Source: an uncultured Hormoscilla sp. (GTDB taxonomy: Bacteria; Cyanobacteriota; Cyanobacteriia; Cyanobacteriales; Desertifilaceae). Taken from it: a stretch of 64,000 bases of DNA. Of this stretch, positions 14,278-54,958 are shown piece after piece. Position numbers and translations under genes: made by a program. How positions within the stretch are numbered: position 1 is the stretch's first letter; each line of letters begins with the position of its first letter. The notes under the pieces are model-generated. The model was not told the origin of the DNA. It ran no database searches and was given only the letters and a program-made list of their open reading frames with translations. The stretch is from positions 4,832,001 through 4,896,000 of the forward strand of contig OZ001293.3 of assembly GCA_963921275.4 (NCBI GenBank). Direction: 5' to 3'.

Positions 14278-14315
14278 TTGTTAGTTGTTAGTTGTTCATC
14301 GACCATTCTCCATTC

Positions 14316-29235: not shown

Positions 29236-30108
29236 ATGGTATTTGGACCGGCATCGGAATTAGGTGTGGCCCTGTTTGAGGACACAGAACCAGTAGAGCT
29301 ATGCTCAGGGCGCTCTGAGGAAGAAGTGGGAACGGTGATTCGCGCAGTGTACCGGCAGGTGTTGGGAAATGCCTACGTGATGGACAGCGAACGGCTGACG
29401 GTAGAAGAGTCGCAGCTGAAACTGGGCGAAATCAGCGTGCGGGAGTTCGTGCGTCAAGTAGCGAAATCAGATCTGTATCGTTCCCGGTTTTTCGACAGCT
29501 GCCCCCGCTATCGGGCAACGGAGTTGAACTTCAAGCATATTCTCGGTCGGGCCCCAAATAGCTACGAAGAGATGAAAGCACACAGCGCGATCTTGGATGG
29601 AGCAGGTTTTGAGGCGGACATTGATTCCTATCTGGATAGCGATGAGTATCAGAATGTGTTTGGGGAAGACATAGTACCGTTTTATCGGGGCTATAAAACC
29701 CAAACTGGTAAGAATATGGTTGGGTTTACCCATATGTTCCAACTCTTGCGCGGTGCTTCCAGCAGTGACCTGAAAGGGAATTTGTCGGGAAATGAACCAC
29801 GGTTGAATAAGTACGTGATTCAAGCCATACCCACGGCTGTAATTCCGCCTTCGGGAGCATCGGATGGTTGGTCTTTCCAAGATCCAACTCTGGGGGCGCG
29901 GACCCGACATGGAGTCGGAGCAACTTCCGAAGGCAAGGTATACCGGGTGGAAGTCACTGCCTATAGCTCGCCAGGGGCAGTCAATCGCGTCTCGAAATTC
30001 CGGCGCAGTAACAAGGTGTATCTGGTGCCCTTCGATCAGCTGTCGAAAGAGTACCAGCGGATTCACCAACAGGGCGGTAAAATTGCCAGTATAACTGTTG
30101 TTAACTAG
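29236..30108 (+). CDS. cpeC: Phycoerythrin rod linker CpeC
   Basis: FGPASELGV.LFE, PBS linker domain, C-terminal CpcD-like domain. Confidence 0.9.
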   Translation: MVFGPASELGVALFEDTEPVELCSGRSEEEVGTVIRAVYRQVLGNAYVMDSERLTVEESQLKLGEISVREFVRQVAKSDLYRSRFFDSCPRYRATELNFKHILGRAPNSYEEMKAHSAILDGAGFEADIDSYLDSDEYQNVFGEDIVPFYRGYKTQTGKNMVGFTHMFQLLRGASSSDLKGNLSGNEPRLNKYVIQAIPTAVIPPSGASDGWSFQDPTLGARTRHGVGATSEGKVYRVEVTAYSSPGAVNRVSKFRRSNKVYLVPFDQLSKEYQRIHQQGGKIASITVVN

Positions 30109-30185
30109 GATCCCCGGGCAAAAAAAACCTGTAGCAACGGGTAACGGGGGAAAGGTAAAAGTGATTTAGGAGGACGAATTTAAGA

Positions 30186-30938
30186 ATGGCAAATGAAACG
30201 GAACTATGGCCCACAAGCACTCCCGAGGAAGTGCAGGCGACAATCCGGGCGGTTTACCGACAGGTGTTGGGAAACCCCCATGTGATGGAAAGCGAACGAC
30301 TGGTAAGTGCAGAATCGCAATTGTCCGATCGTAGCATGACGGTGCGGGAATTTGTCCGGGCAGTGGCAAAATCAGATTTCTATCGCAGCCGGTATTTTGA
30401 GAGCTGTGCGCCCTATCGGTTCGTGGAGTTGAACTTCAAGCATTTGCTGGGACGGGCCCCCCTGTCACAAGCAGAACTGTCGGAGCATATCCAGATATGC
30501 ATTAATTCGGGCTACGATGCGGAAATCGACTCCTATATGGATAGCGAAGAATATGAGGCCAGGTTTGGCGAGAATATCGTACCTTACTATGTCGGGGCGA
30601 TCAGCCAGGTAGGGCAAAAGCAAGTTGGCTATAACCGCACTCTGTCCCTGGTGAGGGGTTGGGCAGAAATTGATAGTGCCACGGAATCATCTCGTTTGGT
30701 AGAAGCAGTGGCAACTAATGGTACGACGGAAATCCCGTTGCAGCCAAGTGGTCGCATAGCAGCTTATGCAGATGCCACGGAAAAGATGTTCAAAATTGTG
30801 GTGAAGGGGGCGAAATTTGACAGTCCTCGTCGTCGCAGCACAACGGAGTATATCGTGCCGGGCAGCAGGATGTCGCCGCAAATTCAGCGGATAAATCGCA
30901 CTAGCGGCACAATTGTCAGCATCACAGAAGTGGCGTAA
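30186..30938 (+). CDS. cpeD: Phycoerythrin rod linker CpeD
   Basis: [44 protein letters not shown]. Confidence 0.88.
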   Translation: MANETELWPTSTPEEVQATIRAVYRQVLGNPHVMESERLVSAESQLSDRSMTVREFVRAVAKSDFYRSRYFESCAPYRFVELNFKHLLGRAPLSQAELSEHIQICINSGYDAEIDSYMDSEEYEARFGENIVPYYVGAISQVGQKQVGYNRTLSLVRGWAEIDSATESSRLVEAVATNGTTEIPLQPSGRIAAYADATEKMFKIVVKGAKFDSPRRRSTTEYIVPGSRMSPQIQRINRTSGTIVSITEVA

Positions 30939-31020
30939 AATTGGTGGGACTAGCAAAAGGCTCCTAGTCCCGCAGTTGGTTAAATAAAGGTCAACCTGAT
31001 TGAAGGCAGGAGAAGATTGA

Positions 31021-31788
31021 ATGTTTCTATGGGCTGTTGAAAATCCCCCGATCGAACTGCGACCGAATGCAACAGAAGAGGATTTGCAAACGGTGCTCAG
31101 AGCGGTATACAGGCAGGTGCTGGGAAATGAGCACTTGATGGACTGCGATCGCCTAACGAGTGCAGAATCATTGCTGCGGAATGGCGACATCACGGTGCGC
31201 CAATTTGTGAATGTGGTGGCGAAATCAGAACTGTATCAAGAACTGTTCTTTCACTCCAGTTATCAGTACCGTTTCATAGAACTAAACTGCAAGCATTTGT
31301 TGGGTCGTGCGCCCCGGGACCAGGCAGAAATATCTGAACATGTTCAGATATACAAGGACCAGGGGTATGAGGCGGAAATCGATTCCTATATCGACAGCGA
31401 GGATTATATTGAGAACTTTGGGGAGAACATTGTTCCCTACCCGCGCTCAATTAACAGTCAGCTGGGAATAAAAAATGTCGGCTTTAACCGGATGTTTGCC
31501 TTGCTGGGTGGTTTTGCAAGCAATGACAGTGATAAACAGGCGAAGCTCATTACCTCCTTGGGTGCTAACCTGTCTCCGGCCATCAAAGCACCGGCTGTTG
31601 GCAATGGGGCGGAATATGGCAACACGGGCAAACGCTTCCTGATTACCTATTCGACTTCAATGGCAGCGGCGCGGCTGAACAAGTTGAGCAAGGTGGAATC
31701 ATTGGTAAGCTACAGTCAAATGTCTCAGGAAGTTCAGACCATTCATAAGCGGGGTGGGAAGATCCTGAGTATATTAGAACAGGTTTAA
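31021..31788 (+). CDS. cpeE: Phycoerythrin rod linker, CpeE-like paralog 1
   Basis: [34 protein letters not shown]. Confidence 0.78.
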
Positions 31789-31860
31789 CAAGTTGGGATA
31801 AGCAGTCAGTGGCAACCGCCACTGACTACAGGAAAAATGACTAAATAAGGAGGAAGATAA

Positions 31861-32619
31861 ATGTCACTCTGGGTAACCTCAGAACCAACAGAATTAAGAC
31901 CAGATGCAACAGAAGCAGATTTGCAGACAGTGATTCGGGCAGCTTACAAACAGGTGTTGGGCAATCAGCACGTGATGGAGAGCGAAAGGCTATCAAGTGC
32001 AGAATCGATGCTGCGAAATGGCGAGGTCAGCGTGAGCGGCTTCGTGGAACTGGTGGCTAAATCGGAGTTGTATCAAGAACTGTTTTTTAACAGTTCTTCG
32101 CCCTATCGATTCGTGGAACTAAACTGCAAGCATCTGTTGGGTCGTGCGCCTAAGGACCAGGCGGAAATTTCAGAGCATGTCCAAATTTATAACTCACAGG
32201 GCTACGAGGCAGAAATAGACTCTTACCTCACTAGCGAGGAGTATCAGTCCAATTTTGGCCAGAATATCGTCCCCTACCCGCGCAACAATAGCACCCAGCT
32301 GGGGATCGCGAACGTAGGTTTTAACAGGACGTTTGCATTGATGCGGGGGGACGCCACCAGTGATAGTAGTAACCAGGCGCAGCTAATTGCTGATATCGCA
32401 GCTGACCTCCCCACAAAGATTACTGCGGCTCCTGCTGGCTCTGGCACTTATAGCAATACTGGTAAGCGCTTCCGGATCGCAGTGGCAAAGGCGGGAACGA
32501 CTCCTGTCTATAAGCAGAGCAACTTCGTCTATGAGGTGGCCTACGAGCAGATGTCTAAGAAAATTCAGAACATTCACAAAATGGGCAGCAAGATTGTCAG
32601 TATTACTGAAGTTGCCTAG
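31861..32619 (+). CDS. cpeE: Phycoerythrin rod linker, CpeE-like paralog 2
   Basis: MSLWV...ELRPDATE.DLQ, GFNRTFALMRG, NTGKRFRI. Confidence 0.82.
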   Translation: MSLWVTSEPTELRPDATEADLQTVIRAAYKQVLGNQHVMESERLSSAESMLRNGEVSVSGFVELVAKSELYQELFFNSSSPYRFVELNCKHLLGRAPKDQAEISEHVQIYNSQGYEAEIDSYLTSEEYQSNFGQNIVPYPRNNSTQLGIANVGFNRTFALMRGDATSDSSNQAQLIADIAADLPTKITAAPAGSGTYSNTGKRFRIAVAKAGTTPVYKQSNFVYEVAYEQMSKKIQNIHKMGSKIVSITEVA

Positions 32620-33721: not shown

Positions 33722-34342
33722 ATGGCGATCGCAGAGCAGAACAAGAGTAGTATAGTACGGGATATGAAGGCGCTAGCCTGTTGGATGGCGGGAGATTTTA
33801 GTAACGAAAAACAAGCCTATGATAACCCGATAACCTATGCACATATTCATATATTTTGGCGACCATTACCCTATGAATTTTTTGAGGGAATCGGATTTTA
33901 TTCAGAGCAAGTTTATGACTACGATTTCTGGAGACCATACCGTCAGGGAGTCCATCGCCTAGTAGCTTTCAGCGATCGGATTTATATAGAAAACTACGGT
34001 CTGAAAGACCCGGTTCTATATGCGGGTGCAGCAAGGGAGTTAGATATTCTTAAAACGATTACGCCAGATGAGATTAAACGTCGCGAGCATTGTGGAATGA
34101 TTTTCTGGCGGGAAGGGGAAATGTTTCGAGGTGCTGTGGAGGGTAAAAATTGTTTGATAAATAGAAATGGATGGAAAACATATCTGGTGAGCGAGGTGGA
34201 ATTGACGGCAAAAACTTGGGTAAGTTTAGATAAGGGTATGGATGTGAATACCCACGAGCAAGTATGGGGCTCGAAGGCGGGACCGTTGAGATTTGAGAAA
34301 CGGCAAAGTTTTGCTGAAGAAGTACCGCCGATGTATGAATAA
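33722..34342 (+). CDS. cpeT: Bilin lyase CpeT
   Basis: MAGDFSN..QA..NP..YAHI, YSEQ.YDY..W.PYRQ, VWGS..GP..F. Confidence 0.92.
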   Translation: MAIAEQNKSSIVRDMKALACWMAGDFSNEKQAYDNPITYAHIHIFWRPLPYEFFEGIGFYSEQVYDYDFWRPYRQGVHRLVAFSDRIYIENYGLKDPVLYAGAARELDILKTITPDEIKRREHCGMIFWREGEMFRGAVEGKNCLINRNGWKTYLVSEVELTAKTWVSLDKGMDVNTHEQVWGSKAGPLRFEKRQSFAEEVPPMYE

Positions 34343-34384
34343 CTGTACTGTAATCTATTAGCAGCAAATGAGTGGAAGGGAGAA

Positions 34385-34690
34385 ATGTTGCCGCCACAAG
34401 CAGAAAAAAAGATGCAAGCGTGGATCCGCAGTAGACATCTGATCAGTTCGGGAAACTTTTTTATCTTGGAAACGGTAGAATATCCAACAGTAGAAAGATT
34501 TACAGAATGCGTAGAGAGTTTAGGAGGAACTTTAATAACAGTCCAACCAATAGACAAAATATGGATAGGGGATCATAGAAAAGTGATTTTATATCAAGCG
34601 AAAGCGAGTTTACATACACCCTATCACGATTTAAAACAATACTGGTTCAAATATGGTGGTTTGAAGACAAGATTTGATCGACGTTGTTAA
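34385..34690 (+). CDS. cpeR: Phycoerythrin regulator CpeR
   Basis: MLPP.A.KKMQ.WIRSRHLI.SGNFFI.ET; follows cpeST. Confidence 0.92.
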   Translation: MLPPQAEKKMQAWIRSRHLISSGNFFILETVEYPTVERFTECVESLGGTLITVQPIDKIWIGDHRKVILYQAKASLHTPYHDLKQYWFKYGGLKTRFDRRC

Positions 34691-34709
34691 CAGAGAAAGG
34701 GAGAGAAAA

Positions 34710-36500
34710 ATGATCGGCAGTTTTATTAACCCAGTAATAACTAAAGCATCGGCATTAGGTGTCAGCTTGTTTGAAGAGACAGACACGATCGAGTTGTGGC
34801 AGTCCAGTTCAGAAGCAGAAGTGGAGACGGTGATTCGGGCAGTATACAGGCAAGTGTTGGGGAATGCTCATGTGATGGAGAGCGAGAGGTTAACCATCCC
34901 GGAATCCCATCTGCGCTCGGGGGAAATAAGCGTCAGAGATTTTGTGCGGGAAGTGGCGCTATCGGAAATGTATCGCTCCCGGTTTTACGACAACTGTCCC
35001 CGCTACCGCTCGATCGAGTTAAATTTCAAGCATTTGCTGGGTCGGGCCCCGGAAAGCTATGAGGAGATGTGCACTCATAGCAACATTTGGGATCGAGGCG
35101 GTTGGCAGGCAGAGATAGATTCCTATGTAGATAGTGAGGAATATCACGAGGCATTTGGGGAAAACAGAGTGCCGTTTTACCGGGGTTATAAAACCCAGAC
35201 AGGCAAGCGGGTAGTTGGGTTTACCCATATATTCCAACTCTTGCGCGGTGCTTCTAGCAGCGATAAATCCAGTTTTGTGGGGACAAGGTCAAGGCTAAAT
35301 CGGGCGATCGTCACCAATAATCCCAGCGTGATGATTCCCCTTTCATCCTCCTATGGGCGACCGACTGATGTCAATAAACTACTAGCTGATGTCCTAAAGC
35401 TGAAGCAACCAGCAATCGCGCCACCAACAAGTCGGCCAAAAATCCTATCAGCGGAGGTAGAAATAGCTCAATCCTGGCAAGGTCAATATCAATCATGGGA
35501 AGATCCAGAGCCAGTAGAGCTATGGCCAGGCCGATCGGAAACGGAAGTAGAAACGGTGATTCGGGCGGTATACAGGCAAGTTTTGGGGAATGCCCACGTG
35601 ATGGAGAGTGAACGACTCACAGTCCCGGAATCACAGATAAAACTTGGGGAAATCAGCGTCCGTGAATTTGTCCGTCAGGTGGCCAAATCGGAGTTGTACA
35701 GGTCGCGGTTCTTCGACAACTGCCCCCGCTACCGGGCGATCGAGTTAAATTTCAAGCATCTGCTGGGTCGTGCCCCTGATGACTACTCGGAGACTTTCTA
35801 TCACAGTAGCGTGCTGGATGCAGGCGGTTTTGAGGCGGAGATAGACTCTTATATCGATAGCGACGAGTACCAGGAAGCTTTTGGGGAAAACGTAGTACCG
35901 TTTTACCGAGGCTACAAAACCCAGACTGGCAAAAGGCTGCTTGGGTTTACCAACATGTTCCAACTATTGCCCAGCGTTTCGACTAGCGATAAAGCGGGTT
36001 TATCAGGAAATCTACCTCGGCTGAATCGGGCCCTGATTTACAATCATCCTACAGGCAAAGCCCCTGTCACGGATATCAATGCCTTGCTGGCTGAGGTGCT
36101 CAAGCCGAAGATCCAGCCCCAAGAAATTATCTCCAAAGCAGAACTGGCTCGCAAGCAAGCCTATCAAGCTTTGCAAAGCCAGTGTTCCGAACAAGAAACT
36201 GTGATTGCGACTTTACAACAACAGTTGGCAGAATTACGGGCAACTGCTACCATCGGAGCAGCCCAATTAAATAAGTGGCAGTCTTATAGCCCTTACTCCA
36301 ATGGCGGCACTGGTTTGACCATAGGCCGACAACCGACGGCAACCGCCGCCCTACCAGAAAGTTATGAGGCTTTGCAACAGCAGTATGCAGTAGGGGAAGA
36401 GACGATCGCCTCTTTACGGGAGCAAATCTCAGACCAGCAGCGCTTGGCCGCGATCGGATCGGCGCGATTGAATAAATGGCGCACCCGTTCTTTTTCCTAG
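34710..36500 (+). CDS. Two-domain phycobilisome linker with a C-terminal coiled-coil extension
   Basis: Two tandem [21 protein letters not shown]...FYRGYKTQTG domains, then two modules ending IGAAQLNKW and IGSARLNKWR. Confidence 0.88.
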   Translation: MIGSFINPVITKASALGVSLFEETDTIELWQSSSEAEVETVIRAVYRQVLGNAHVMESERLTIPESHLRSGEISVRDFVREVALSEMYRSRFYDNCPRYRSIELNFKHLLGRAPESYEEMCTHSNIWDRGGWQAEIDSYVDSEEYHEAFGENRVPFYRGYKTQTGKRVVGFTHIFQLLRGASSSDKSSFVGTRSRLNRAIVTNNPSVMIPLSSSYGRPTDVNKLLADVLKLKQPAIAPPTSRPKILSAEVEIAQSWQGQYQSWEDPEPVELWPGRSETEVETVIRAVYRQVLGNAHVMESERLTVPESQIKLGEISVREFVRQVAKSELYRSRFFDNCPRYRAIELNFKHLLGRAPDDYSETFYHSSVLDAGGFEAEIDSYIDSDEYQEAFGENVVPFYRGYKTQTGKRLLGFTNMFQLLPSVSTSDKAGLSGNLPRLNRALIYNHPTGKAPVTDINALLAEVLKPKIQPQEIISKAELARKQAYQALQSQCSEQETVIATLQQQLAELRATATIGAAQLNKWQSYSPYSNGGTGLTIGRQPTATAALPESYEALQQQYAVGEETIASLREQISDQQRLAAIGSARLNKWRTRSFS

Positions 36501-36720
36501 ATCGGCCTTTTACGAGCGCGGTCAGCAGTTTTTCCGCTGACCGCTAAGCAAAAATATATTTGGGAATGATACTAATAGGTAGTCCGAAGTCCGCCCAGAA
36601 GATGCTAGGCAGAGCGATCGCCCGATATGGGGAAAAGAAACTTGATGGTAGTACCCTAAGTCCTCAAAATAAGACTAGCATGGAGTTGGAGGGATCTGTA
36701 GTCACAATTAAGTAAGTGTA

Positions 36721-37553
<833 letters not shown>

Positions 37554-37646
37554 TAGGAGTAGAAGACAGATGTAAGGGGAAAAGCAGAAAGGGACTTGTA
37601 GCAAGGGCTTAGATAGGGTATACTAAAAAAAATAACAGAATTAGAG

Positions 37647-40508
37647 GTGGAGTTAATGGCAAAGAAAAGCCGTGGAGTTCCGGCGTTATATTCAGAGATA
37701 AAGGTCAAGCTGGGGATTTCAATGACGCCCACAGGCAGAAAGTTGCTGACTAAGATGGCCGAAAAGGCGGATTTATCCCGCTCGGAAATGGTAGAGCAGA
37801 TCGCAAGAGGGTGTATCTCGATCGAGAGTGCCTCGGCAAAAATGGCGATAATGCTAAAGGAGGCGGTGGAAAATCAAGCTCTAACAGATGCAGAAATAGA
37901 ACAGCTGAGCACGAAGTTTCAGGTGGTCGATAGTGAATTGTCCAGTCCAGTGGAGGATGAGACAGGGTCTGAGGTGCAGTTAGAAAGTTCTCAAGCACAA
38001 GCACAGTTGATTGTAGATTTACAACAACAGATAAAGGAGTTGGAAGCAGCTCTAGCAACTAAGAACGAGGAGATGGTGCCGTTAGAAAATTATGAATCAT
38101 TGCGGCAAGAGTCGGCAGCACAAGCAACTCAGATAGAGGAGTTAGAAACAAAGCTAGCAGAATGGTCCGATCGGGTGCCGCGCTCAGAATATGAAACATT
38201 GCAGCAGGATTCGGCAGCGCAAGCAAGTCAGATAGAAGAGTTGCACTCCAGGATAGAGAAATTGTCGTCTCGGGTACCGCACTCAGAATATGAGTCATTG
38301 CAGGAGTCGTCAGCAGCATTATCAGAGGAGATCGCCTCCTTGAAAGCACAGCTTCAGGCATCTGAGGAGATAATGGCCAGTCAGAAAGAGCGGACAGTGC
38401 CGTTAGAGGAATATGAGTCATTGCAGCAGGACTCGGCAGCACAAGCAAGTCAGATAGAAGAGTTACACTCCAGGATAGAGGAATTGTCATCTCGGGTGCC
38501 AGTCTCAGAATATGAGTCATTGCAGGAGTCGTTAGCAGCATTATCAGAGGAGATCGCCTCCCTGAAAGCACAGCTTCAGGCATCCGAGGAGATGATGGCC
38601 TCTCAGAAAGAGCGGACAGTGCCGTTAGAGGAATATGAGTCATTGCAGCAGGACTCGGAAGCACAAGGGGAGGAGATAGCAGCATTAAAAGCACAGATAG
38701 GCCAGTTGGAAAAGAATGTGCCAGTCTCAGAATATGAGTCATTGCAGCAGGACTCGGCAGCGCAAGCAAGTCAGATAGAAGAGTTGCACTCCAGGATAGA
38801 GGAATTGTCGTCTCGGGTACCGCACTCAGAATATGAGTCATTGCAGGAGTCGTCAGCAGCATTATCAGAGGAGATCGCCTCCTTGAAAGCACAGCTTCAG
38901 GCATCTGAGGAGATAATGGCCAGTCAGAAAGAGCGGACAGTGCCGTTAGAGGAATATGAGTCATTGCAGCAGGACTCGGCAGCACAAGCAAGTCAGATAG
39001 AAGAGTTACACTCCAGGATAGAGGAATTGTCATCTCGGGTGCCAGTCTCAGAATATGAGTCATTGCAGGAGTCGTTAGCAGCATTATCAGAGGAGATCGC
39101 CTCCCTGAAAGCACAGCTTCAGGCATCCGAGGAGATGATGGCCTCTCAGAAAGAGCGGACAGTGCCGTTAGAGGAATATGAGTCATTGCAGCAGGACTCG
39201 GAAGCACAAGGGGAGGAGATAGCAGCATTAAAAGCACAGATAGGCCAGTTGGAAAAGAATGTGCCAGTCTCAGAATATGAGTCATTGCAGGAGTCGTCAG
39301 CAGCACTATCAGAGGAGATCGCCTCCTTGAAAGCACAGCTTCAGGCATCTGAGGAGATAATGGCCAGTCAGAAAGAGCGGACAGTGCCGTTAGAGGAATA
39401 TGAGTCATTGCAGCAGGACTCGGCAGCACAAGCAAGTCAGATAGAAGAGTTGCACTCCAGGATAGAGGAATTGTCATCTCGGGTGCCAGTCTCAGAATAT
39501 GAGTCATTGCAGGAGTCGTCAGCAGCACTATCAGAGGAGATCGCCTCCCTGAAAGCACAGCTTCAGGCATCCGAGGAGATGATGGCCTCTCAGAAAGAGC
39601 GGACAGTGCCGTTAGAGGAATATGAGTCATTGCAGCAGGACTCCGCAGCACAAGCAAAGGTGGTAGCTTCCTTAGAACAACAGATAACGGAGTTGCAACA
39701 TCGGGTGCCATTAGAGCAATATGAATCAGTGCGGCAGGACTCGGCAGCACAAGCAAAGGTGGTGGCAGAGTTACAACAACAGCTGAGTGAGTTGCAAGAA
39801 CATAGTATGGAAACAGAGAATGGGGAGACTGTGTCGTTACAGAGATATGAATCAGTCCGGCAAGAGTCGGAAGCAAAAGCAAAGGTGGTGGCCTCCTTAC
39901 AAAAGCAGATTAAGGAGTTGCTGCAAGAGCGCGTGCCGTTATCTACATATGAACATGTGCGACAAAAAGTTGCAGAACAAGCAACTCAGATCGCCCGATT
40001 AGAAAAAAAGATTAGTCAATATCGGGTGCCCTTAAACAATTATGAAGCGTTGCACCAGGAGTCCCGATCGCAAGCAAGTCAGATGGCCCAGTTACAACAA
40101 CAGATCCGCGAGCTGCAAGGACGGGTGCCATTAGAAAAATATGAAAGTTTGCGGCAACAGTCAGAACAAAAAGAACGGGCGATCGCCGCAATGCAACAAC
40201 AGATTCGGTTATTGTCAGATCGGGTGCCCAAAGAAGAATATGAATCTTTGTGGCAGTCTACCGTTCCGGAAAAATCGGAAAAACAAGCCAAGGTGGTGGC
40301 GCAACTGCAACAACAGCTTAACGGTTTGCAAGGTAATACAACTCAGACCAATGGAAATGGGCCGTTAGAGAGTTACGCATCTTTGCTACAGCAGTCTCAA
40401 GAACAGGCAAAGTTGATTGCCACCCTACAGCAAAAAGTTGCCGAGTTGCAGTCAACTTCCAGAATTGGAGAAGCTCATTTAAATAAGTGGCGTCAGCGCA
40501 ATTTTTAG
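37647..40508 (+). CDS. Ribbon-helix-helix-like N-terminus + about 22 coiled-coil repeats + IGEAHLNKWR C-terminus
   Basis: LGISMTPTGRKLLTKMAEKADLSRSEMVEQIAR (CopG/RHH-like); 33- and 41-aa VPxxxYESL modules; 543-bp internal duplication. Confidence 0.8.
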   Translation: MELMAKKSRGVPALYSEIKVKLGISMTPTGRKLLTKMAEKADLSRSEMVEQIARGCISIESASAKMAIMLKEAVENQALTDAEIEQLSTKFQVVDSELSSPVEDETGSEVQLESSQAQAQLIVDLQQQIKELEAALATKNEEMVPLENYESLRQESAAQATQIEELETKLAEWSDRVPRSEYETLQQDSAAQASQIEELHSRIEKLSSRVPHSEYESLQESSAALSEEIASLKAQLQASEEIMASQKERTVPLEEYESLQQDSAAQASQIEELHSRIEELSSRVPVSEYESLQESLAALSEEIASLKAQLQASEEMMASQKERTVPLEEYESLQQDSEAQGEEIAALKAQIGQLEKNVPVSEYESLQQDSAAQASQIEELHSRIEELSSRVPHSEYESLQESSAALSEEIASLKAQLQASEEIMASQKERTVPLEEYESLQQDSAAQASQIEELHSRIEELSSRVPVSEYESLQESLAALSEEIASLKAQLQASEEMMASQKERTVPLEEYESLQQDSEAQGEEIAALKAQIGQLEKNVPVSEYESLQESSAALSEEIASLKAQLQASEEIMASQKERTVPLEEYESLQQDSAAQASQIEELHSRIEELSSRVPVSEYESLQESSAALSEEIASLKAQLQASEEMMASQKERTVPLEEYESLQQDSAAQAKVVASLEQQITELQHRVPLEQYESVRQDSAAQAKVVAELQQQLSELQEHSMETENGETVSLQRYESVRQESEAKAKVVASLQKQIKELLQERVPLSTYEHVRQKVAEQATQIARLEKKISQYRVPLNNYEALHQESRSQASQMAQLQQQIRELQGRVPLEKYESLRQQSEQKERAIAAMQQQIRLLSDRVPKEEYESLWQSTVPEKSEKQAKVVAQLQQQLNGLQGNTTQTNGNGPLESYASLLQQSQEQAKLIATLQQKVAELQSTSRIGEAHLNKWRQRNF

Positions 40509-40580
40509 TCTGTCTGAAAGTTGAGAGACCAGGTAACTCCTGCGAAACCAGGTTTCTGGGCCTCCAGTTGAGGTCTAGCT

Positions 40581-40794
40581 CAATACTTCTCGGTTAAGCA
40601 TTTTATTTGTCATTGCTTCGATATCTCTGGGGAGCGCTATTCGCACTATCCCGGAGATATCGAAGGGTGATACGTAGGGATTAACTTATGCTTTATGAGT
40701 TAACCGATTGCTTGCTCAACACTGCTGGTTGGTTTGGAAGCCCCCCACGCTGCGCGAAAAATCGCAATGACAAGTTATTAACCGAGAAGTATTG
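40581..40794. mobile_element. MITE (IS4-like ends), 214 bp, containing nested micro-elements
   Basis: 17-bp TIR CAATACTTCTCGGTTAA / TTAACCGAGAAGTATTG; 10-bp TSD AGGTCTAGCT at 40571-40580 and 40795-40804. Confidence 0.88.
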
Positions 40795-40798
40795 AGGT

Positions 40799-41413
40799 CT
40801 AGCTGGATGCTTTGGATTTAAACTGGGTAACTTGCTCTAGGCGAGATAAAGCACTGGTAGCTGACTCCCGAATATAGGGGTCAGCTGCTTCATTATTGGC
40901 AAGAGGGGATAGCACTTCAGCAGCTTTAGAGTCTCCCAGGGATCCGAGGGCATTAATCACCGCGACTTGGAGAGCAATATCATCGATAGTCATTGCCTCG
41001 ACGAGAATATCCAAGGCGGGTGGACCCACAGTGCCCAGTGCGCCCACTGCGGAGATTTTTACTACTGGGTTGGGGTCTTTTAGGGCTGTTTGCAAACCCG
41101 CAAGGGCTTCTTTTGGGAAGTTCTCTTCGGGAAAATTGAGGGCGATCGCCGCCAGGGCTTTAGCGCAGCTAGCCCTGACTGTTTCATTATCACTGCTTGT
41201 CAGTTGTTCTACCAATGCAGGGACAGCATCCAAACCAATAAGACCCAAAGCTTGCACGGCTGCCCGCCGGTAGACCACATCTTCATCCGACAAAATTCCC
41301 ATCAGTTGAGGAATAGTATCGGCAGTCCTTTCGGAGGCAATTTGGCGCATTGCTCTTTCTCGCAGTCTCGGATTCTTATGTTTGAGTTGTTGATACAAAT
41401 CTTCTGCGGTCAT
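40799..41413 (-). CDS. cpeZ: Phycoerythrin assembly HEAT protein CpeZ
   Basis: LYQQLKH.NP.LR..AM, DEDVVYRRAAV.ALG.IG, SDN.TVR.S.AKALA. Confidence 0.82.
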   Translation of the reverse strand: MTAEDLYQQLKHKNPRLRERAMRQIASERTADTIPQLMGILSDEDVVYRRAAVQALGLIGLDAVPALVEQLTSSDNETVRASCAKALAAIALNFPEENFPKEALAGLQTALKDPNPVVKISAVGALGTVGPPALDILVEAMTIDDIALQVAVINALGSLGDSKAAEVLSPLANNEAADPYIRESATSALSRLEQVTQFKSKASS

Positions 41414-41949
41414 ATTATTCTGAGGTAATTTGTGAATTTATCGTTCCAGAGTCATCGAAAACTCGCAAGAACTCCAGAGATTCGAGCGGGGAAGACAACC
41501 AGATTGTCAGCATTAGCGACTTTGGCTGAGGGAACCCAATCGCGCTTCTACCTGTTGCATGCTGTATACCACTTCTCCAATATTCTGCGTCGGAGCCAAC
41601 TGACCTTGGGCATTCATAAAACGCTAAGATGCCATGAGTTCCATTAGGGGTCGAGCTGGGAATCGCTTCCCAACCCTCCCTTTCGAACCGTGCATGCGGT
41701 TTTCATCGCACACGGCTACTGGTTAGTTGGACCTTGTCATTGGCAGGATTACTGGGGATTGCTCCCTTTGTCCCTCTTCTTATGCAGTTTTTCCCCTTTA
41801 TGGTAGTCGATAGGACTGTTTCGTATCTAGCTCCGGAAGGTTCGCGGGGGGTATCCAGGAAACCACTTATACCGCTCTTTGCTAACATTGCCCCTGTCTC
41901 GTCATTAGGGGACTTTTCAAGTTTTACCCGGCTAGAGTTTTAGTCCATA

Positions 41950-43571: not shown

Positions 43572-44442
43572 GTGCGATTCGTTCTAGCCTAACGTGGTCA
43601 AACACGGAACGCTAGCCCGGTTTCATTAGCCGGGAACTCTGACCGCATGGGGGTTAAATTCCCCTCCCCCCAGGTACGGGGGTGACACCGGTCCTCGGTG
43701 CTACGAAGCGACATCATCGTGGTGCTAAGCGAGGACTCAAATGTAGGATAACTGGCAGCCTAAGCCGGTGACGCCGCTAGGAAAGATATCCAAGGTTAGA
43801 GCAGGCAAACATGTGCAAGCCTCGTTATAAGGAACCAGCGAAATAAGGCTATATGCGCTGGCCTAAAAAGGAAATGGTAGCTAGTATTAGTTTTAGACTC
43901 TGGCTAATATAGTACTCAAATAGCTCCCGGGGTATAGTGTGGACCTAAAGGTATCGCGAAATGTTGTTAGGGAACGAAGTAACCTCTCGTGTGCTGTCCA
44001 TCAGGACAAGTTAGATGTTAAGCGCAAGCCACGGGGGGAGGGATGGCCCAAGAAGCGAATGCCCGGGGTAATTCCTGGGATAACATCTACAGTAATGTAG
44101 ATGATGCTGGGTAGCCAGCGCTGACGTGGGTCGGTGATACTAGGAAGCTGCTGGAATGAGTAATCCTAAAAAGCCACGGAACTAATCCGAAACGCAAGTG
44201 GAGGATAAGGTATGGATAACTGGTAAAACTGACTTGAAAATGGTGATACTAACGGTTATCAGAACAACCACTCGCTAAACCAGGAAAGGGAAGAAAAGAC
44301 AGGCGGCAAGGGCTAACGGAAGTAATTCCTATTAAGTCTACCTATGAAAAGGGCCTAGTACCCAGTAGCCGGATGCGGTGAAAATCGCAAGTCCGGTTCC
44401 TCAAGGGAGGGTCGGGAAGCGATTCCCGGCTCGACCCCATCC
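43572..44442 (+). mobile_element. ORF-less group II intron, 871 nt (copy A2), nested antisense in domain I of intron C
   Basis: Same length as 11952-12822 and identical in the stretches compared; 5' exon TTGAGCCT versus TTGAGTCT for copy A1. Confidence 0.93.
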
Positions 44443-48043: not shown

Positions 48044-49048
48044 GTGCTGGAACCCGATACCTTTCTTGAAGACGATCGCCGCGAAGATTTCTTTGCCTAT
48101 AATACAGGGCGCAATGGCGGCGAGTATTACACCCCCCGGCCTCTGATTCGCGCTATGATTCGGGTGGTGCAGCCGAAGATAGGCGATCGGATCTATGACG
48201 GCGCTTGCGGGTCGGGGGGGTTTCTGTGCGAGAGTTGCCTGGGAACTCCCACAACCAAACAAAATGAAATCCTACAAACCGAGACATTTTACGGGAAGGA
48301 GAAAAAGAGCCTCGCCTATGTCATAGCGATCATGAACATGATTTTGCATGGCATTAACGCACCTAACATCGTGCGCACCAACACCCTGACGGAGAACCTG
48401 AACGACATTCAGGACAAGGATCGCTTTGAGGTGGTTTTGGCAAATCCGCCCTTTGGAGGGAAGGAACGGAAGGAGGTGCAGCAGAATTTTCCGATTAAAA
48501 CGGGAGAGACGGCGTTTCTATTCTTGCAGCATTTCATCAAAAGCCTGAAGGTGGGCGGTCGTGCTGGGGTGGTGATTAAAAATACGTTTCTCTCGAATGC
48601 CGATAAGGCCTCTCGCGCCTTGCGAGAAGAACTGTTAACCAGTTGTAATCTGCATACGGTGCTGGACTGTCCCGGCGGGACGTTCATCGGTGCGGGGGTG
48701 AAAACGGTGGTGCTGTTCTTCGAGAAGGGGAGACCAACGGAGAAAATCTGGTATTATCAGCTTCAGCCAGGGCGCAGTTTGGGGAAGACCAACCCCCTCA
48801 ATGATGATGACCTGAAGGAGTTCGTGGATCTGCAAGGGAAGTTGGCCTCCTCCGAAAAGTCCTGGTTTGTGGATGTGTCGGAGATCGATCGGACGACGTT
48901 CGATCGGACGACGTTCGATCTGTCGGTGAAGAATCCGAATGGGCCAGAAGAAACACCGTTAAGGGATCCACAGGAGATTCTGGATGAGATCGCGGCGTTG
49001 GATGCGGAGACTGCGGAGATTTTGGCTAAAATTAGGGGGATGTTGTGA
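48044..49048 (+). pseudogene. hsdM: Type I RM methyltransferase HsdM, N-terminally truncated
   Basis: GRNGGEYYTPR lies about 20 aa from the start; DGACGSGGFL, LANPPFGG; the N-terminal helical domain is absent. Confidence 0.8.
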
Positions 49049-49665
49049 GCAATCGCTGGGAAGTAGTGCCACTTGGCAAAGTTTGTTGGGTTGATAAGTT
49101 GCAATATAGTGGTTCTAACTTGCCTTATGTTGGTATGGAAGATATTGAGAGTGGAACTGGTAGGTTTTTGGGGTCATTAGAACCACGCAATGTACAAAGT
49201 TCAACATTTAAATTCACCCCTAAACATCTTCTTTATGGGCGATTGCGTCCATACCTAAATAAAGTGATGTTGCCTAGTTTTTATGGTCACTGCTCATCAG
49301 AGATTTTTCCTATTGCTGTTAGTGAAAAACTAGATCGTTCTTTCTTGTTTTACTGGTTAACAAGCAATAGTACTGTTGAGCGTATAAATCGCACCTGTAC
49401 AGGTGCAAGAATGCCGAGAGCCAATGTGAAATCAATTTTAAATTTCGATTTTCTTCTTCCACCACTCCCCGAACAAAAGCAGATTGTGGCGATCCTGGAT
49501 GAGGTGTTTGAGGAAATCGATCGCGCGATCGGCAACACTGAGAAGAACCTCGCTGCCCTCCAAGAACTCAAACAATCTATCCTGCAAAAAGCATTCACCG
49601 GAGAACTCACCGCCGACGCCGCTAACCAGGCGATACAAACCGCTAAGGAGATTGTCGCCGCATGA
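49045..49665 (+). CDS. hsdS: Half-length type I specificity subunit (single TRD)
   Basis: WEVVPLG, LYGRLRPYLNKV, PPLPEQKQIVAILD, ELKQSILQKAFTGEL; only 206 aa. Confidence 0.85.
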   Translation: MSNRWEVVPLGKVCWVDKLQYSGSNLPYVGMEDIESGTGRFLGSLEPRNVQSSTFKFTPKHLLYGRLRPYLNKVMLPSFYGHCSSEIFPIAVSEKLDRSFLFYWLTSNSTVERINRTCTGARMPRANVKSILNFDFLLPPLPEQKQIVAILDEVFEEIDRAIGNTEKNLAALQELKQSILQKAFTGELTADAANQAIQTAKEIVAA

Positions 49666-49760
49666 ACAATTATTGTCTTCCTCGTAAATTTGACCATCCA
49701 ACCCGGGAGGATTTATGTAGATCCAGAAAATTCGGAAACCATTACAATACAAGTATCTAA

Positions 49761-52121
49761 GTGCCTAAAAGCAAATCGAGACCAATGGATATGAACGAAG
49801 CTGAAACCCGCGCAGAACTGATCGACCCCGCCCTGAAAGCCGCCGGCTGGGGAGTTGTCCCCGATAGCGGCATCCGCCGCGAACGCATCACCCTCGGTCG
49901 CCTGATCGGTGATGGAAAACGTACCAAAAAATTAATCACCGACTACGTCCTGGTCTATCGCGATCGCAAGCTGGCAGTCATCGAAGCCAAGAGACGGGAC
50001 CTCCACGACACCGAAGGGGTGGGACAGGCGAAGAACTATGCGGAAAAATTGCAAACCCGTTTCGCCTACTCCACCAACGGCGATCGCATCTACCAGATCG
50101 ATATGCAAACAGGGACCGAAGGCTACGTCAACAATTATCCCAGTCCCGATGAACTCTGGGCTATGACCTACAGCCAGCAGAACGAATGGCGCGATCGCTT
50201 TGCGGTCATCCCCTTCCAGGACAAAGGTGGCAGCAAGGAAGCGCGGTACTACCAGCACAACGCCATCACCAATGTCCTAGAGGCGATATCCTCCGGGCGC
50301 GATCGCCTCCTGTTGACAATGGCAACGGGAACCGGTAAAACCTTCGTCGCCTTTCAAATCGCGTGGAAACTATTCCAAAGCCACTGGAATCTCACCGGGA
50401 AACCAACCCGCCGCCCCCGCATTCTGTTTTTAGCCGATCGCAATATCCTCGCCAACCAAGCCTTTAACAACTTTTCCGCCTTTCCCGACGATGCCCTCGT
50501 TCGCATCGACCCCGACTCAATCCGCAAGCGCGGTCGAGTCCCCAAGAATGGCAGCATCTTTTTTACCATCTTCCAAACCTTCATGACAGACAGCGCGAAG
50601 GAAGAAAACCCCACCCCCAACTTCGGCGAATATCCCCCCGACTTCTTCGACTTCATCATCATTGACGAATGCCACCGAGGAGGTGCGAGAGACGAAAGCA
50701 CCTGGCGCCGCATCCTGGAACATTTCTCACCCGCCGTACAGTTAGGACTCACCGCCACCCCCAAGCGCACCTACAATGCCGACACATACGCTTATTTTGG
50801 AGAGCCCGTTTACACCTACTCCCTCAAAGACGGCATCAACGACGGTTTTTTAACTCCCTTCCAAGTCAAGCAAATTCAAACCACTCTAGATGAATATCTC
50901 TATACCAAAGATGATATTATTCTCGAAGGGCAAGTGTCCGAAGGCAAACGCTACAGGGAAGAGGAATTCAACCGCATCATCGAGATCGAAGCACGGGAAA
51001 GATACCGCGTCAGGCTGTTGATGGCAGACATCGACCAAAATCAGAAAACCATCGTTTTTTGCGCCACCCAAGACCACGCACTCGCCGTGCGAAACTTAAT
51101 TAACCAAATGAAAAACAGCAGCAACCCGAATTACTGCGTGCGAGTTACTGCCAATGATGGGAAATTAGGCGAACTGCATTTAAGTAACTTTCAGGACAAC
51201 GAGAAAAACATCCCCACCATTCTCACCACTTCCCAGAAACTCTCCACCGGTGTTGATGCGCGGAACATTCGCAACATCGTTTTAATGCGTCCCATCAATT
51301 CCATGATTGAGTTCAAACAGATTATCGGTCGCGGCACCCGGCTTTTTGAAGGTAAAGACTATTTCACGATTTACGATTTTGTCAAAGCTTATGAGCATTT
51401 CAACGACTCCGAATGGGATGGGGAACCCGAAACCCCTATACTGATAACTGGTGGCGAAGAAAATAGAACCGATGAAGCTGGCCACAGGGAGGAAATAGAA
51501 CCGGATGTAAGCCAAGAACCAACCCAAAAAGTCAAAATCAAACTAGCAGACGGCAAAGAACGCATTATCCAGCACATGATGGCGACCTCTTTCTGGAGTC
51601 AAGATGGCAAACCCATATCAGCAGCAGAGTTCATCGAACAACTGTTTGGGGAACTCCCAGAACTGTTCAGAGATGAAAACGAATTACGGCAACTATGGAG
51701 CCTCCCCGATACCCGTCAAAAACTGTTAGAATGTCTTGAAGAGAAAGGTTACGGCCACGAGCAGCTTGTGGAAATTAGCCGCCTTTTCGACGCCGAGAAA
51801 AGCGACATATACGACGTGCTTGTCTACATTGCTTACAACAACTCACCCCCCATCACCCGCCAAGAGCGAGTCATCGCCCGCAAGGAGATAATATTCTCTC
51901 ACTACACTGACAAACAACAAGAATTTATAGATTTTGTATTATCGCAATACGTTAAAGGAGGCGTAGACGAACTAAGTATAGAATCATTACCTCAACTGCT
52001 AGAAATAAAGTACGGCAGCATTAGAGATGCTATGGACGATCAGGGGAACGATCCTGCCGCTATCAGAAATTTTTTTATTGGGTTTCAACAATACTTATAT
52101 GAAAACAAAACAGCAGCATAA
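49761..52121 (+). CDS. hsdR: Type I restriction subunit (EcoAI/EcoEI-like HsdR)
   Basis: NEAETR..LIDP.L, IEAK, MATGTGKT, DECHRGG, GLTATP, QIIGRGTR; the real start may be 49785 or 49791. Confidence 0.93.
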   Translation: MPKSKSRPMDMNEAETRAELIDPALKAAGWGVVPDSGIRRERITLGRLIGDGKRTKKLITDYVLVYRDRKLAVIEAKRRDLHDTEGVGQAKNYAEKLQTRFAYSTNGDRIYQIDMQTGTEGYVNNYPSPDELWAMTYSQQNEWRDRFAVIPFQDKGGSKEARYYQHNAITNVLEAISSGRDRLLLTMATGTGKTFVAFQIAWKLFQSHWNLTGKPTRRPRILFLADRNILANQAFNNFSAFPDDALVRIDPDSIRKRGRVPKNGSIFFTIFQTFMTDSAKEENPTPNFGEYPPDFFDFIIIDECHRGGARDESTWRRILEHFSPAVQLGLTATPKRTYNADTYAYFGEPVYTYSLKDGINDGFLTPFQVKQIQTTLDEYLYTKDDIILEGQVSEGKRYREEEFNRIIEIEARERYRVRLLMADIDQNQKTIVFCATQDHALAVRNLINQMKNSSNPNYCVRVTANDGKLGELHLSNFQDNEKNIPTILTTSQKLSTGVDARNIRNIVLMRPINSMIEFKQIIGRGTRLFEGKDYFTIYDFVKAYEHFNDSEWDGEPETPILITGGEENRTDEAGHREEIEPDVSQEPTQKVKIKLADGKERIIQHMMATSFWSQDGKPISAAEFIEQLFGELPELFRDENELRQLWSLPDTRQKLLECLEEKGYGHEQLVEISRLFDAEKSDIYDVLVYIAYNNSPPITRQERVIARKEIIFSHYTDKQQEFIDFVLSQYVKGGVDELSIESLPQLLEIKYGSIRDAMDDQGNDPAAIRNFFIGFQQYLYENKTAA

Positions 52122-52295
52122 AGCGTATAACTTCTAGCTAAAACAACAATGCTTTTAGTCGGTTTTCAACCGACTTTAGCTATTAGCCGGGGGTTTGAAC
52201 CCCCGGCGGGTCTGGTTTACATCTGAGTATCTCCACAAACCATCGGCGTCTTCCGCATGCTCTTGTCCTGAAGGACTCGGCATACTCCAGACACC

Positions 52296-52349
52296 GTCAC
52301 GCCATTTGCGGGCATCTTCTACATAGAAGTGAATGCGATCGATCTGCAT
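52296..52349 (-). pseudogene. Possible N-terminal remnant of 4-hydroxyphenylpyruvate dioxygenase
   Basis: MQIDRIHFYVEDARKWRD resembles cyanobacterial HppD starts; the similarity then stops. Confidence 0.35.
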
Positions 52350-52427
52350 TGTTAATTGGGAATTGCTAATTGTTCCAAACAGATTACCTCTTTTGCTAGT
52401 TGAGTGCGATCTCCTCTGAAGATGGCA

Positions 52428-53972
52428 TTAATGTCTGCCAAAAGATGCTGGTAAAACAGCCAAAATGTTTTTTGCTGTAGCATTACCTAGTTCTTTGGGT
52501 TCCAGTTTGTGAAGCCCGCCCCCATATACTCGACCCTCACCTGCCAAGATTTCTGGGGATATCTCCTGGAGACCTTGCCACACAACTTTGACAAGCTGCC
52601 GATTTATGTTGAGGATTTTCTCCAGGTTGGGTTTTGGGTAAAGCATCAGATACACGTTGGCTGCTGTCGCCCGGCTGTGATTCAATATAAATCGGAATGT
52701 GAGACCATTTTTTTTGCCTTTACGCCCCATATAAGTACAAAGGAACCTAGAAGCCGGACGGTTCTCTTGTAAGTACCAAGGATATCTATGTCTGCACAAA
52801 TACCGCTGACTATATCCGGCCTTTACACCTAGGAGAAGGTAATTCCAAAGTAATGGATATTTATATTTTACCTCCGCTTCTGGCAAATGGCATGCTAGCC
52901 AAAATAGTTGCCGATCAACCAGGGGATTTCCAGCCATATCTGCTGCTATCTCCTCTACTGAGAGGTATCGGGGACTGGGTAAAATTGGTTTCAAGAATTC
53001 CTCTGGCAGTTGATGGCGATAGATCTGTTCTGGGGTGAGGATAAAAAACTGATTTGCCCCGGTTGCTAAACCCCGCTTGATTGTGAATAGGTCGGATAAC
53101 TTGAGGGACCTGTCATCGGACCGGAAATGAGGAACGGTAAATTTTTTCCACTTGGCGGTATCGCCTAATCGCTCGATCGGGATATATTTTTCTACTTGCG
53201 GTGCTTTTAAGGTGCCGCCGTAGGTAAACTTAACCATCCGATCGGTTGCGGGTCTTGTTTTTTTCAGCCAAATCACTGCTGAAGATACAAGTGCATCTGC
53301 AAACAGGAGATCCTGCGGATCGAAACGATGGATATGTAGCAAAGTTACGCGACTGAGTAAGTATTCCTGGATCTGTTTTCCGTAATTGACATCCATAAAC
53401 TCGCTAGGAATCAGCCATCCAGCAATAGCATTTTCAGCCATCCAGGCATCGGCAAGGCAGAGAAAATAGCAGTACATTCCCGCTAATTGACTGAGTTTTA
53501 TTCCCACTGTTTGATAGGTAATATTTTGCAGTCGCTGCTTCTCAGGATTGGTCAAATGGTGATGTCTGATATAGGGAGGATTGGCAATGATGAGGTCAAA
53601 TTTGGCGGCCTCAGAAGTTGGCGGCGTGGCACGGGTAAAATCGTCAATTTTTAGCTTTAATGGCCTATCTTGCCAAAACTCAGACGCTTGCAGTCCATAG
53701 TCGGGAGAAATTTCATAGCCAACCGCTTCAGCAATCTGTGAAGAGGGAAATGTTTTTAGCAAGGCGGAGTAGAATGAGCCAGTACCAAAGGCAGGATCCA
53801 GAAAGCGAATGTTTCCTGGCAACAGTGCTTTGGCGTATTCTAGCATATCTGTTGCTAGGGCTGTCGGTGTCGCAAATTGACCGAGTTTGTTTCGTGAATA
53901 ACGTGTTTTCCTGGAATCAAGTTCTGCTTGAAGCTGGAGGCGCATTAATTCAATATTGTTGATTTCTACCAT
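52428..53972 (-). CDS. N6-adenine DNA methyltransferase, partner of the XamI-type endonuclease
   Basis: GQFATP, FLDPAFGTGSF, IANPPY, YGGGLHKLEPKEL. Confidence 0.9.
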   Translation of the reverse strand: MVEINNIELMRLQLQAELDSRKTRYSRNKLGQFATPTALATDMLEYAKALLPGNIRFLDPAFGTGSFYSALLKTFPSSQIAEAVGYEISPDYGLQASEFWQDRPLKLKIDDFTRATPPTSEAAKFDLIIANPPYIRHHHLTNPEKQRLQNITYQTVGIKLSQLAGMYCYFLCLADAWMAENAIAGWLIPSEFMDVNYGKQIQEYLLSRVTLLHIHRFDPQDLLFADALVSSAVIWLKKTRPATDRMVKFTYGGTLKAPQVEKYIPIERLGDTAKWKKFTVPHFRSDDRSLKLSDLFTIKRGLATGANQFFILTPEQIYRHQLPEEFLKPILPSPRYLSVEEIAADMAGNPLVDRQLFWLACHLPEAEVKYKYPLLWNYLLLGVKAGYSQRYLCRHRYPWYLQENRPASRFLCTYMGRKGKKNGLTFRFILNHSRATAANVYLMLYPKPNLEKILNINRQLVKVVWQGLQEISPEILAGEGRVYGGGLHKLEPKELGNATAKNILAVLPASFGRH

Positions 53973-53975
53973 TGT

Positions 53976-54935: not shown

Positions 54936-54958
54936 AATCAACTTATTATATCAAGCCT

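Follow-up and report, generated by a model that had tools for sequence, protein, structure and literature searches.

Our analysis of a 64,000-nucleotide stretch of the genome of an uncultured Hormoscilla sp. (GenBank assembly GCA_963921275.4, contig OZ001293.3, positions 4,832,001 to 4,896,000; hereafter the window) identified two intact genes, here called A and B, that by sequence belong to two widespread, uncharacterised cyanobacterial families with a portable C-terminal module in common. Gene A encodes a predicted phycobilisome linker with two PF00427 (REP) domains, and gene B a protein with a putative ribbon-helix-helix (RHH) head on a long coiled-coil stalk; their coordinates and those of their parts are given in Table 1. 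The comparisons described below point to a C-terminal module that is widespread and has not been described, to a new subfamily of linkers and to an RHH family associated with antenna gene clusters. Taken as a whole, the data are best explained, at a confidence that stops a little short of an even chance, if the module is an end-piece by which different heads are attached to one shared target, the antenna being the most likely candidate.

The last 110 residues of the gene A protein matched the gene B protein by BLASTP in two segments (61% identity over 33 residues, E 4e-10, and 43% identity over 46 residues, E 1e-8), which bears out the claim of an earlier note on this DNA that the linker and the RHH protein have a common repeat and an IGxAxLNKWR tail. 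Thirteen columns are invariant over the three modules, two of gene A and one of gene B (Y, L, Q, I, A, L, I, G, A, L, N, K, W), and when the 7.03-Mb genome of the organism itself was searched in all six frames for the tail, the full module was found in genes A and B only, the remaining matches being the internal repeats of gene B. The best-conserved part of the module is its last 15 residues, hereafter the tip, with the consensus I-G-E-A-R-L-N-K-W-R-x-R-x-F-S. Among 137 tails the W is retained in 132, the L in 127, the N in 121, the R in 120 and the E in 105, and in 132 of them the conserved W stands 5-9 residues from the end of the protein. The polar E, N, K and R of the tip are nearly invariant over all architectures, which suggests that these positions serve either specific recognition or a specific helix-helix cap. 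When the tail profile was compared with Protein Data Bank (PDB) sequences, its helical heptad part matched two-stranded coiled coils (E 8e-4 to 1e-2) and the terminal motif had no match; a Foldseek search of the PDB with a model of the tail turned up generic long helices and no match at E<=1e-3, and a search of the ESM Atlas for look-alikes of one short RHH-form protein yielded no usable lead.

The distribution of the module extends well beyond this genome. A profile built from the three modules found tail matches in 66 of 401 cyanobacterial genomes sampled over the phylum, representing 32 of 156 genera; in four of the 66 genomes these are marginal matches in a distant family and are probably due to chance. 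A second profile, of 34 tail sequences, was run against 1.84 billion representative proteins and retrieved 243 representative clusters at E<=1e-3, 141 of them at E<=1e-10. In all of the 150 best representatives there are 0-11 residues between the end of the last module and the C-terminus, and in 140 of them no more than 2. The architectures that recur in the sampled genomes comprise PF00427 linkers with two modules (about 335 amino acids), proteins with an RHH head, a coiled coil and one module (222-547 amino acids), HMA_2 domain proteins with two modules, a low-complexity protein that starts with MLQxVWKWLNR and has two modules, and a 154-amino acid protein in which an N-terminal membrane helix and a coiled coil precede one module; the tail is also found on small Trp-rich proteins and on small proteins that have no RHH head. 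The tail thus occurs on HMA_2, membrane-helix, Trp-rich and other heads that are unrelated to each other, a result that the earlier note had itself named as one that would refute its proposed coupling between the products of genes A and B. A word-indexed search with a Nostoc-type tail gave 139 relatives at E<=1e-3; the best 120 of these 139 all have PF00427 and are named either 'phycobilisome rod-core linker polypeptide' or 'phycoerythrin-associated linker protein'. The same kind of search with the gene B tail gave 0 matches, the index being too coarse for a 55-residue query for this to be informative on rarity.

The number of modules follows the type of head. When motif-bearing modules were counted among the 150 best representatives, a single module was found in 35 of 35 proteins with an RHH head, and two modules in 29 of 32 PF00427 linkers and in 6 of 7 HMA_2 proteins. 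As RHH folds dimerise obligately, these counts are most simply read as showing a working unit of two modules, both supplied by the same chain where the head is monomeric and one by each chain in the dimeric RHH form. The gap between the modules is short in some members (median 22 residues, minimum 3) and an antiparallel hairpin is therefore favoured for the tandem forms.

Gene A matched PF00427 in two stretches (E 7.4e-102, 336.7 bits against a gathering score of 28.7), and a CpeC-like linker at locus L049 of another genome shares 64% and 68% identity with its two REP domains. No match to the CpcD-like domain PF01383 was found in gene A at E<=0.01; all four linkers encoded upstream at 29236-32619 have one. 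Its scores with the NCBIfam models for CpcG1-4 (NF058511-4; 168-207 bits) are far under their cut-offs of 420-440, NCBIfam has no specific model for either gene A or gene B, and the gene A protein, which ends in ...IGSARLNKWRTRSFS, has no C-terminal hydrophobic membrane helix of the kind by which CpcL is recognised. The last 112 residues contain instead two modules (residues 485-525 and 552-596), the two-domain linker thus ending as the earlier note had described it. AlphaFold2, run on gene A with 61 relatives, predicted two confident REP domains followed by long helices at residues 476-525 and 552-595 (predicted local distance difference test, pLDDT, of about 85-94), with a disordered loop between them. 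In related linkers with the tail the number of PF00427 stretches varies from one to four and the length reaches 1098 amino acids; those with three or four (P0154, P0175, P0177, P0196, P0233 and P0293) are 783-1098 amino acids long, and the two multi-PF00427 tail linkers with a named source are from uncultured cyanobacteria and are called 'phycobilisome rod-core linker polypeptide'. By its sequence, the gene A subfamily can be defined by one to four REP domains, followed by two coiled-coil modules of about 45 residues in the position of the CpcD-like domain, the second of which closes the protein with IGEARLNKWRxRxF.

Gene B starts at the ATG at 37656, which is preceded by a good Shine-Dalgarno sequence (a GTG at 37647 is the alternative in the list of open reading frames, ORFs), and stops at 40508. 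The assignment of its N-terminus to the CopG-type RHH fold rests on several comparisons. The first 75 residues scored 17.6 bits with RHH_1 (PF01402), under the gathering score of 20.5, and a homologue at locus L071 scored 25.3 bits, over this threshold. A profile of 18 N-termini of the RHH family matched the CopG structures 1b01 and 2cpg with an E-value of 1e-6, in an alignment to CopG residues 2-32 that runs from the strand through helix A into the beginning of helix B. Relatives are named 'ribbon-helix-helix protein, CopG family' by NCBI, with a precomputed PF01402 match on 19 of 29 of them, and a basic arm (MxKKKRK...) precedes the RHH strand in 18 of the 18 aligned N-termini. The N-terminus is accordingly a predicted DNA-binding head of the CopG type, as previously surmised from its letters. 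The earlier count of about 22 repeat modules also held, a regular-expression search giving 22 Y[EA]xL module starts with the tail module included. The internal modules align to positions 1-28 of the tail profile. Tandem Repeats Finder detected DNA repeats with periods of 99, 222, 321 and 444 bp at 38091-39797 (67-93% matches); two 222-bp units are 99% identical, and the stalk has therefore expanded recently. The protein is rich in Q (12.6%), E (16.4%) and S (13.3%). Its Pfam matches to Phage_scaffold (60 bits), REST_helical, T7 gp5.9 and others were rejected as compositional matches between coiled coils that do not indicate homology. In this family a basic arm and a predicted RHH fold are followed by a Q/E-rich stalk of highly variable length and a single terminal module.

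The genomic context of tail-bearing genes links both forms to the antenna. The linker form follows cpeS-cpeT-cpeR in the window and at loci L049, L069 and L076. At L074 (G308:C31, 6542-11973), an OmpR-type CcaR-like response regulator, a tail-bearing linker, a CpcL that ends in about 20 hydrophobic residues (its C-terminal membrane helix) and a GAF-PAS histidine kinase are encoded in this order as a compact unit. This looks like the layout of a chromatic-acclimation unit under CcaS/R control, the operon logic of which is described in passages of PMC5737509, with the tail linker in place of the cpeC of Nostoc punctiforme. Linker-form genes are also found among unrelated neighbours (L073 and L075). 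For the RHH form, we searched a phycobilisome reference set in the 16-18 kb fetched around each of 22 loci from 16 genera. Phycobiliprotein, lyase or linker genes were present at 11 of the 22 loci (9 of 16 genera) and a phycobilisome gene was the immediate neighbour at 8; as a control, 3.3% of the Hormoscilla genome lies within 8 kb of a match to the same set at the same threshold. The RHH-form gene stands, for example, between two CpcS/CpeS-type lyase genes (L052, L053 and L072), after cpeR (L067) or after cpeT (L063).

These observations are brought together if two modules, either of the same chain or one from each chain of a dimer, pair to give an end-piece of two helices whose tip is basic and aromatic. 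The end-piece would act as an attachment device that fixes the head to a target common to all forms. We place the phycobiliprotein discs or some other part of the phycobilisome first among the candidate targets, with slightly less than an even chance; other end-pieces would be a minority option, the thylakoid surface a somewhat smaller one and something else the least probable of the four. The antenna is ranked first because every other linker extension known to us (the CpcD-like domains, the CpcG arms and the CpcL helix) contacts phycobiliproteins, the core or the membrane. Passages of a recent preprint describe the inter-REP arms of Gloeobacter, which attach linkers to the core (10.1101/2025.06.10.658930). 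Gene A would then encode a rod-terminal linker that holds two hexamers and does a job like that of CpcG or CpcL by other means, and gene B a DNA-binding dimer on an unusually long stalk that would be anchored at the same kind of site and would probably regulate or tether the DNA of a phycobiliprotein cluster. It is possible to go further and propose that the end-piece plugs into phycobiliprotein discs or another phycobilisome site, that the RHH dimer is attached to the antenna either as a transcription factor reporting on assembly or as a tether from nucleoid to antenna, that the tail linkers are a new rod-terminal class and that A and B compete for or share a site; we give this more specific proposal a low probability.

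Several observations weigh against an antenna-bound end-piece. The other 11 of the 22 RHH-form loci have ordinary neighbours such as hisIE, secG, psaL and psbV, and HMA_2-form genes adjoin genes for a P-type ATPase and other HMA_2 proteins, not antenna genes; both findings argue against a target specific to the antenna. No phycoerythrin-beta-like match above 57% identity was found in G278 and G308, which are among the genomes with the linker form, so the linker subfamily is not strictly bound to phycoerythrin. The pairing rule is not universal, since other heads of at least 140 amino acids are mixed and carry one module in 20 of 34 cases. The structure predictions are no more than compatible with two helices that pack together, the tail predicted alone reaching a predicted template modelling score of 0.58 from an alignment of only 13 rows. 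The antenna would nevertheless be the most likely target of the proposed end-piece.

The strongest competing explanation, which we consider rather unlikely, is that the module is a purely homotypic zipper that binds its own copies only, without any third-party target. It would then dimerise or tetramerise the head to which it is joined, bundling rods in the case of linkers and bridging operators in the case of RHH dimers, in the manner of tetrameric RHH repressors. Mnt of phage P22 is an RHH repressor with a C-terminal coiled-coil tetramerisation domain. A zipper would account for the single module of dimeric heads as against the two modules of monomeric ones, for heads that are mutually unrelated, and for a helical part that resembles designed and natural two-stranded coiled coils. 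It would also fit the fact that tail genes are neighbours in both sampled genomes with two tail-bearing architectures. One is the Hormoscilla genome and the other is G364, where at locus L051 (G364:C312, 8373-9695) an RHH-form gene is followed after 200 bp by the gene for the 154-amino acid membrane-helix protein with its coiled coil and tail; tail-tail contact of a heterotypic kind may therefore occur. What a zipper leaves unexplained is why conservation should peak in the last 15 residues, with their near-invariant E, N, K and R and their extreme C-terminal position, and why RHH-form genes are enriched in antenna clusters.

An end-piece that recognises an antenna component also has to be weighed against a membrane anchor, in which paired basic, Trp/Phe-rich tips would bind the thylakoid surface, making gene A a CpcL-like rod-membrane linker and gene B a membrane-tethered DNA-binding protein. 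The strictly C-terminal tip has a net charge of +2.9 and 2.5 aromatic residues (compared to -0.8 and 0.9 in the preceding 35 residues), and may resemble the C-terminal membrane-targeting helices of MinD and FtsA. The linker form adjoins cpcL at L074, and the HMA_2-form genes adjoin genes for a membrane P-type ATPase and a DUF454 protein. The hydrophobic moment of the first 14 residues of the tip taken as a helix is however only 0.19, under the mean of 0.32 (standard deviation 0.16) of shuffled versions, and the tip is thus not a classic amphipathic membrane helix. Near-invariant polar positions fit specific recognition better than lipid binding, and one of the tail architectures already has a membrane helix of its own. 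We accordingly regard a membrane anchor as improbable.

The model put forward in the earlier note was a specific pairing of the tails of A and B, through which the RHH protein would be sequestered on phycoerythrin rods or released from them and so report assembly to cpe promoters. Its premises of an RHH head and a shared module stand, and the idea of an exclusive coupling between A and B does not, given a portable tail and the near-absence of co-occurrence. Both genes are on the same strand of one phycoerythrin cluster, right behind a cpeR-like gene, they have the module in common, and module 1 of gene A retains the canonical LNKW, as module 1 does in only 1 of 28 two-module representatives. 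A lack of co-occurrence of the two genes is likewise among the refuting outcomes that the earlier note had listed. The RHH form, defined by a match to the N-terminal profile at E<=1e-14 over its full length in an ORF of at least 200 amino acids, was found in 44 of the 401 genomes, 43 of which also have a tail match; the linker form was found in 12 (this genome, six of one genus and five others), and both forms in this genome only. The remaining 11 linker-form genomes have only small generic RHH ORFs of 66-130 amino acids, or no match. Since the two forms almost never co-occur, pairing of A with B cannot be the conserved function of either family. Moreover, the tail of gene B is as close to tails from other genomes (up to 54% identity) as to the two modules of gene A (54% and 41%), and the adjacency of the two genes is explained by each family's own habit of standing behind cpeT or cpeR. 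A complex prediction for the gene A tail cassette with the gene B tail, run without controls, scored 0.19 against a mark of 0.32 and thus gave pairing no support, though it speaks neither for nor against it. Direct pairing is possible in this genome and cannot be the general function of the module; as the explanation of the tail it is very improbable.

Least credible of all is a cargo adaptor of the McdB type, in which the C-terminal Trp motif would dock on a carboxysome or another protein shell and the basic N-terminus would contact a nucleoid-bound ParA-type ATPase: the gross layout is similar (basic N-terminus, Q-rich coiled coil, invariant C-terminal Trp), but the motif of beta-McdB is acidic and the tail motif here basic, no ParA/McdA-like gene was found among 67 neighbouring proteins scanned with Pfam, and antenna linkers with the same tail make a carboxysome target unlikely. 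The resemblance is one of logic only, that of an oligomeric coiled-coil protein docked via a C-terminal Trp motif; according to passages of PMC11321042, McdB has these same three features and binds carboxysomes through its Trp motif and oligomeric avidity, and it differs from the proteins described here in having a ParA partner and in the heads involved.

Returning to an end-piece with a target on the antenna, gene A can be set beside several known linkers. It resembles the rod linkers CpeC, CpeD and CpeE in its PF00427 domain and in its position behind cpeS-cpeT-cpeR, and differs from them in having two such domains and a two-module coiled-coil cassette instead of PF01383. With CpcG and CpcL it has in common a PF00427 head and a C-terminal extension that is not CpcD-like and would attach the rod outside the hexamer cavity. 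Its relatives are moreover named 'rod-core linker polypeptide' by NCBI and the linker form stands beside cpcL at L074, whereas gene A scores under the CpcG1-4 cut-offs, lacks the hydrophobic C-terminal helix and has a coiled coil as its extension. The three-REP proteins Glr1262 and Glr2806 of Gloeobacter are similar to gene A (two PF00427 domains) and to its relatives with the tail (up to four) in having several PF00427 domains per chain. In passages of the preprint cited above (10.1101/2025.06.10.658930), such multidomain rod linkers, in which one chain holds several phycobiliprotein hexamers, are called unique to Gloeobacter; the two-to-four-REP tail linkers come from other cyanobacteria, and were set against the Gloeobacter proteins by description only. 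The predicted strand-helix-helix of gene B aligns with CopG-type repressors as described above, and differs from CopG, a protein of 45 residues, in carrying a coiled coil of about 850 further residues as well as the terminal module. A literature search, covering sources outside subscription journals and supplements, found no paper on the tail, on the tail-bearing linker subfamily or on the RHH family; the sole mention of CpeC among the term-matched passages of the review PMC13436157 concerns red-algal linkers.

The phycoerythrin gene cluster around genes A and B contains the four PF00427 and PF01383 linkers mentioned above plus one CpcD-like ORF. It also holds CpeS (PF09367), CpeT (PF06206), a 101-amino acid CpeR-like ORF, gene A and then gene B; further members of the cluster are a HEAT-repeat lyase on the opposite strand, a DDE transposase, a second CpeS-like gene, a pentapeptide protein and two phycobiliprotein subunit genes. 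The CpeR-like ORF has no Pfam or NCBIfam match and shares 76-80% identity with its positional counterparts at L049, L067, L069 and L076; its name is suggested by gene position and by the cpeCDESTR gene row described in passages of PMC13079394. A promoter and terminator scan of 34300-40900 gave no more sites than were found in shuffled sequences. At 36519-36546, 20 bp past the stop codon of gene A, lies a perfect 9-bp inverted repeat (GCGGTCAGC ... GCTGACCGC) without a T run, at which the terminator scan made no call. A type I restriction-modification set (N6_Mtase, Methylase_S and ResIII/EcoEI R) adjoins the cluster at 48044-54941, beside a XamI-type restriction endonuclease with an Eco57I-type methylase. 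Elsewhere among the tail-bearing families, two-module HMA_2 proteins at L059 (G196:C47) and L064 (G380:C245) are encoded in clusters with more HMA_2 proteins, a P-type ATPase with an HMA_2 N-terminus, a DUF454 protein and a DAGK-YegS-HMA_2 fusion.

Gene B had been described as the next gene on the same strand as gene A; the strand is right, and the two genes are separated by a 1.15-kb spacer that consists mostly of a group II intron. Domains V/VI of this intron at 37476-37553 scored 47 bits with Rfam RF00029 (gathering score 40), and no ORF of at least 60 amino acids was found inside it. A further 41 copies with 99-100% identity are present on contig C1, together with degenerate copies at 72-87%. 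In a read run that covers the whole window at 41-49x, contig depth over the intron is about 3,000-16,000, and in sequencing runs of other organisms it was mainly the intron sequence that was matched. No exon-exon joint that would indicate co-transcription or splicing of the A-B region was seen in the contigs, and no clear RNA run of this organism was found. Three further domain V/VI matches exceed the Rfam gathering score, with 42-44 bits (11954-12030 and 41643-41720 on the minus strand and 44364-44440 on the plus strand); two of these fall within the phycoerythrin cluster, in parts of it that have no long ORFs. They are absent among the near-identical copies of the element at 36716-37555, and are thus likely to belong to other intron lineages.

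Table 1. Genes A and B, their predicted domains and modules, and the features next to them (window coordinates).
Feature	Coordinates	Strand	Evidence
CpeR-like ORF, 101 amino acids, at the end of a row of the cpeC/D/E...S-T-R type	34385..34690	+	Context: after CpeS and CpeT
Gene A, two-REP phycobilisome linker with two-module coiled-coil tail, 596 amino acids	34710..36500	+	Intact ORF, ATG at 34710, stop at 36500
REP1 (PF00427) of gene A, approximate limits	34809..35183	+	Register with REP2; AlphaFold2 helices 35-149, pLDDT >90
REP2 (PF00427) of gene A	35535..35909	+	Best Pfam stretch, residues 276-400 of the ATG-start protein (288-412 in the 608-amino acid TTG-start frame)
Tail module 1 of gene A (YQALQSQ...IGAAQLNKWQS)	36162..36284	+	Tail profile E 6.8e-23; predicted helix 476-525
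Tail module 2 of gene A (YEALQQQ...IGSARLNKWRTRSFS), C-terminus	36363..36497	+	Tail profile E 6.4e-26; predicted helix 552-595
ORF-less group II intron in the A-B spacer, 5' end at 36716-36721, about 840 bp	36716..37555	+	Rfam RF00029; GTGCG at 36721
Gene B, RHH head, 22-module coiled coil and tail, 950 amino acids	37656..40508	+	Intact ORF; RHH-family N-terminal profile E 2.2e-27
Predicted RHH fold of gene B, residues ~14-53, after a basic arm (MAKKSRG...)	37695..37814	+	RHH_1 E 0.0036, 17.6 bits; CopG structure alignment
21 internal YExLQQ coiled-coil modules of gene B, partly recent tandem duplicates	38091..40373	+	Regular expression, Tandem Repeats Finder, tail profile
Tail module of gene B (YASLLQQ...IGEAHLNKWRQRNF), C-terminus	40374..40505	+	Tail profile E 9.5e-26

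Phycobilisome linkers decide the architecture of the antenna, and in the literature found, neither a coiled-coil end-piece that replaces the CpcD-like domain nor chains of one to four REP domains with such a tail outside Gloeobacter have been described. Since the end-piece is common to these linkers and to an RHH family, it may offer a handle on the coupling of antenna assembly, gene expression and cell architecture, as well as on the workings of a new portable module for targeting or assembly. Were the module to serve in self-association only, it would still represent a new domain family and would allow the better annotation of several hundred proteins that are currently 'hypothetical' or mis-named.

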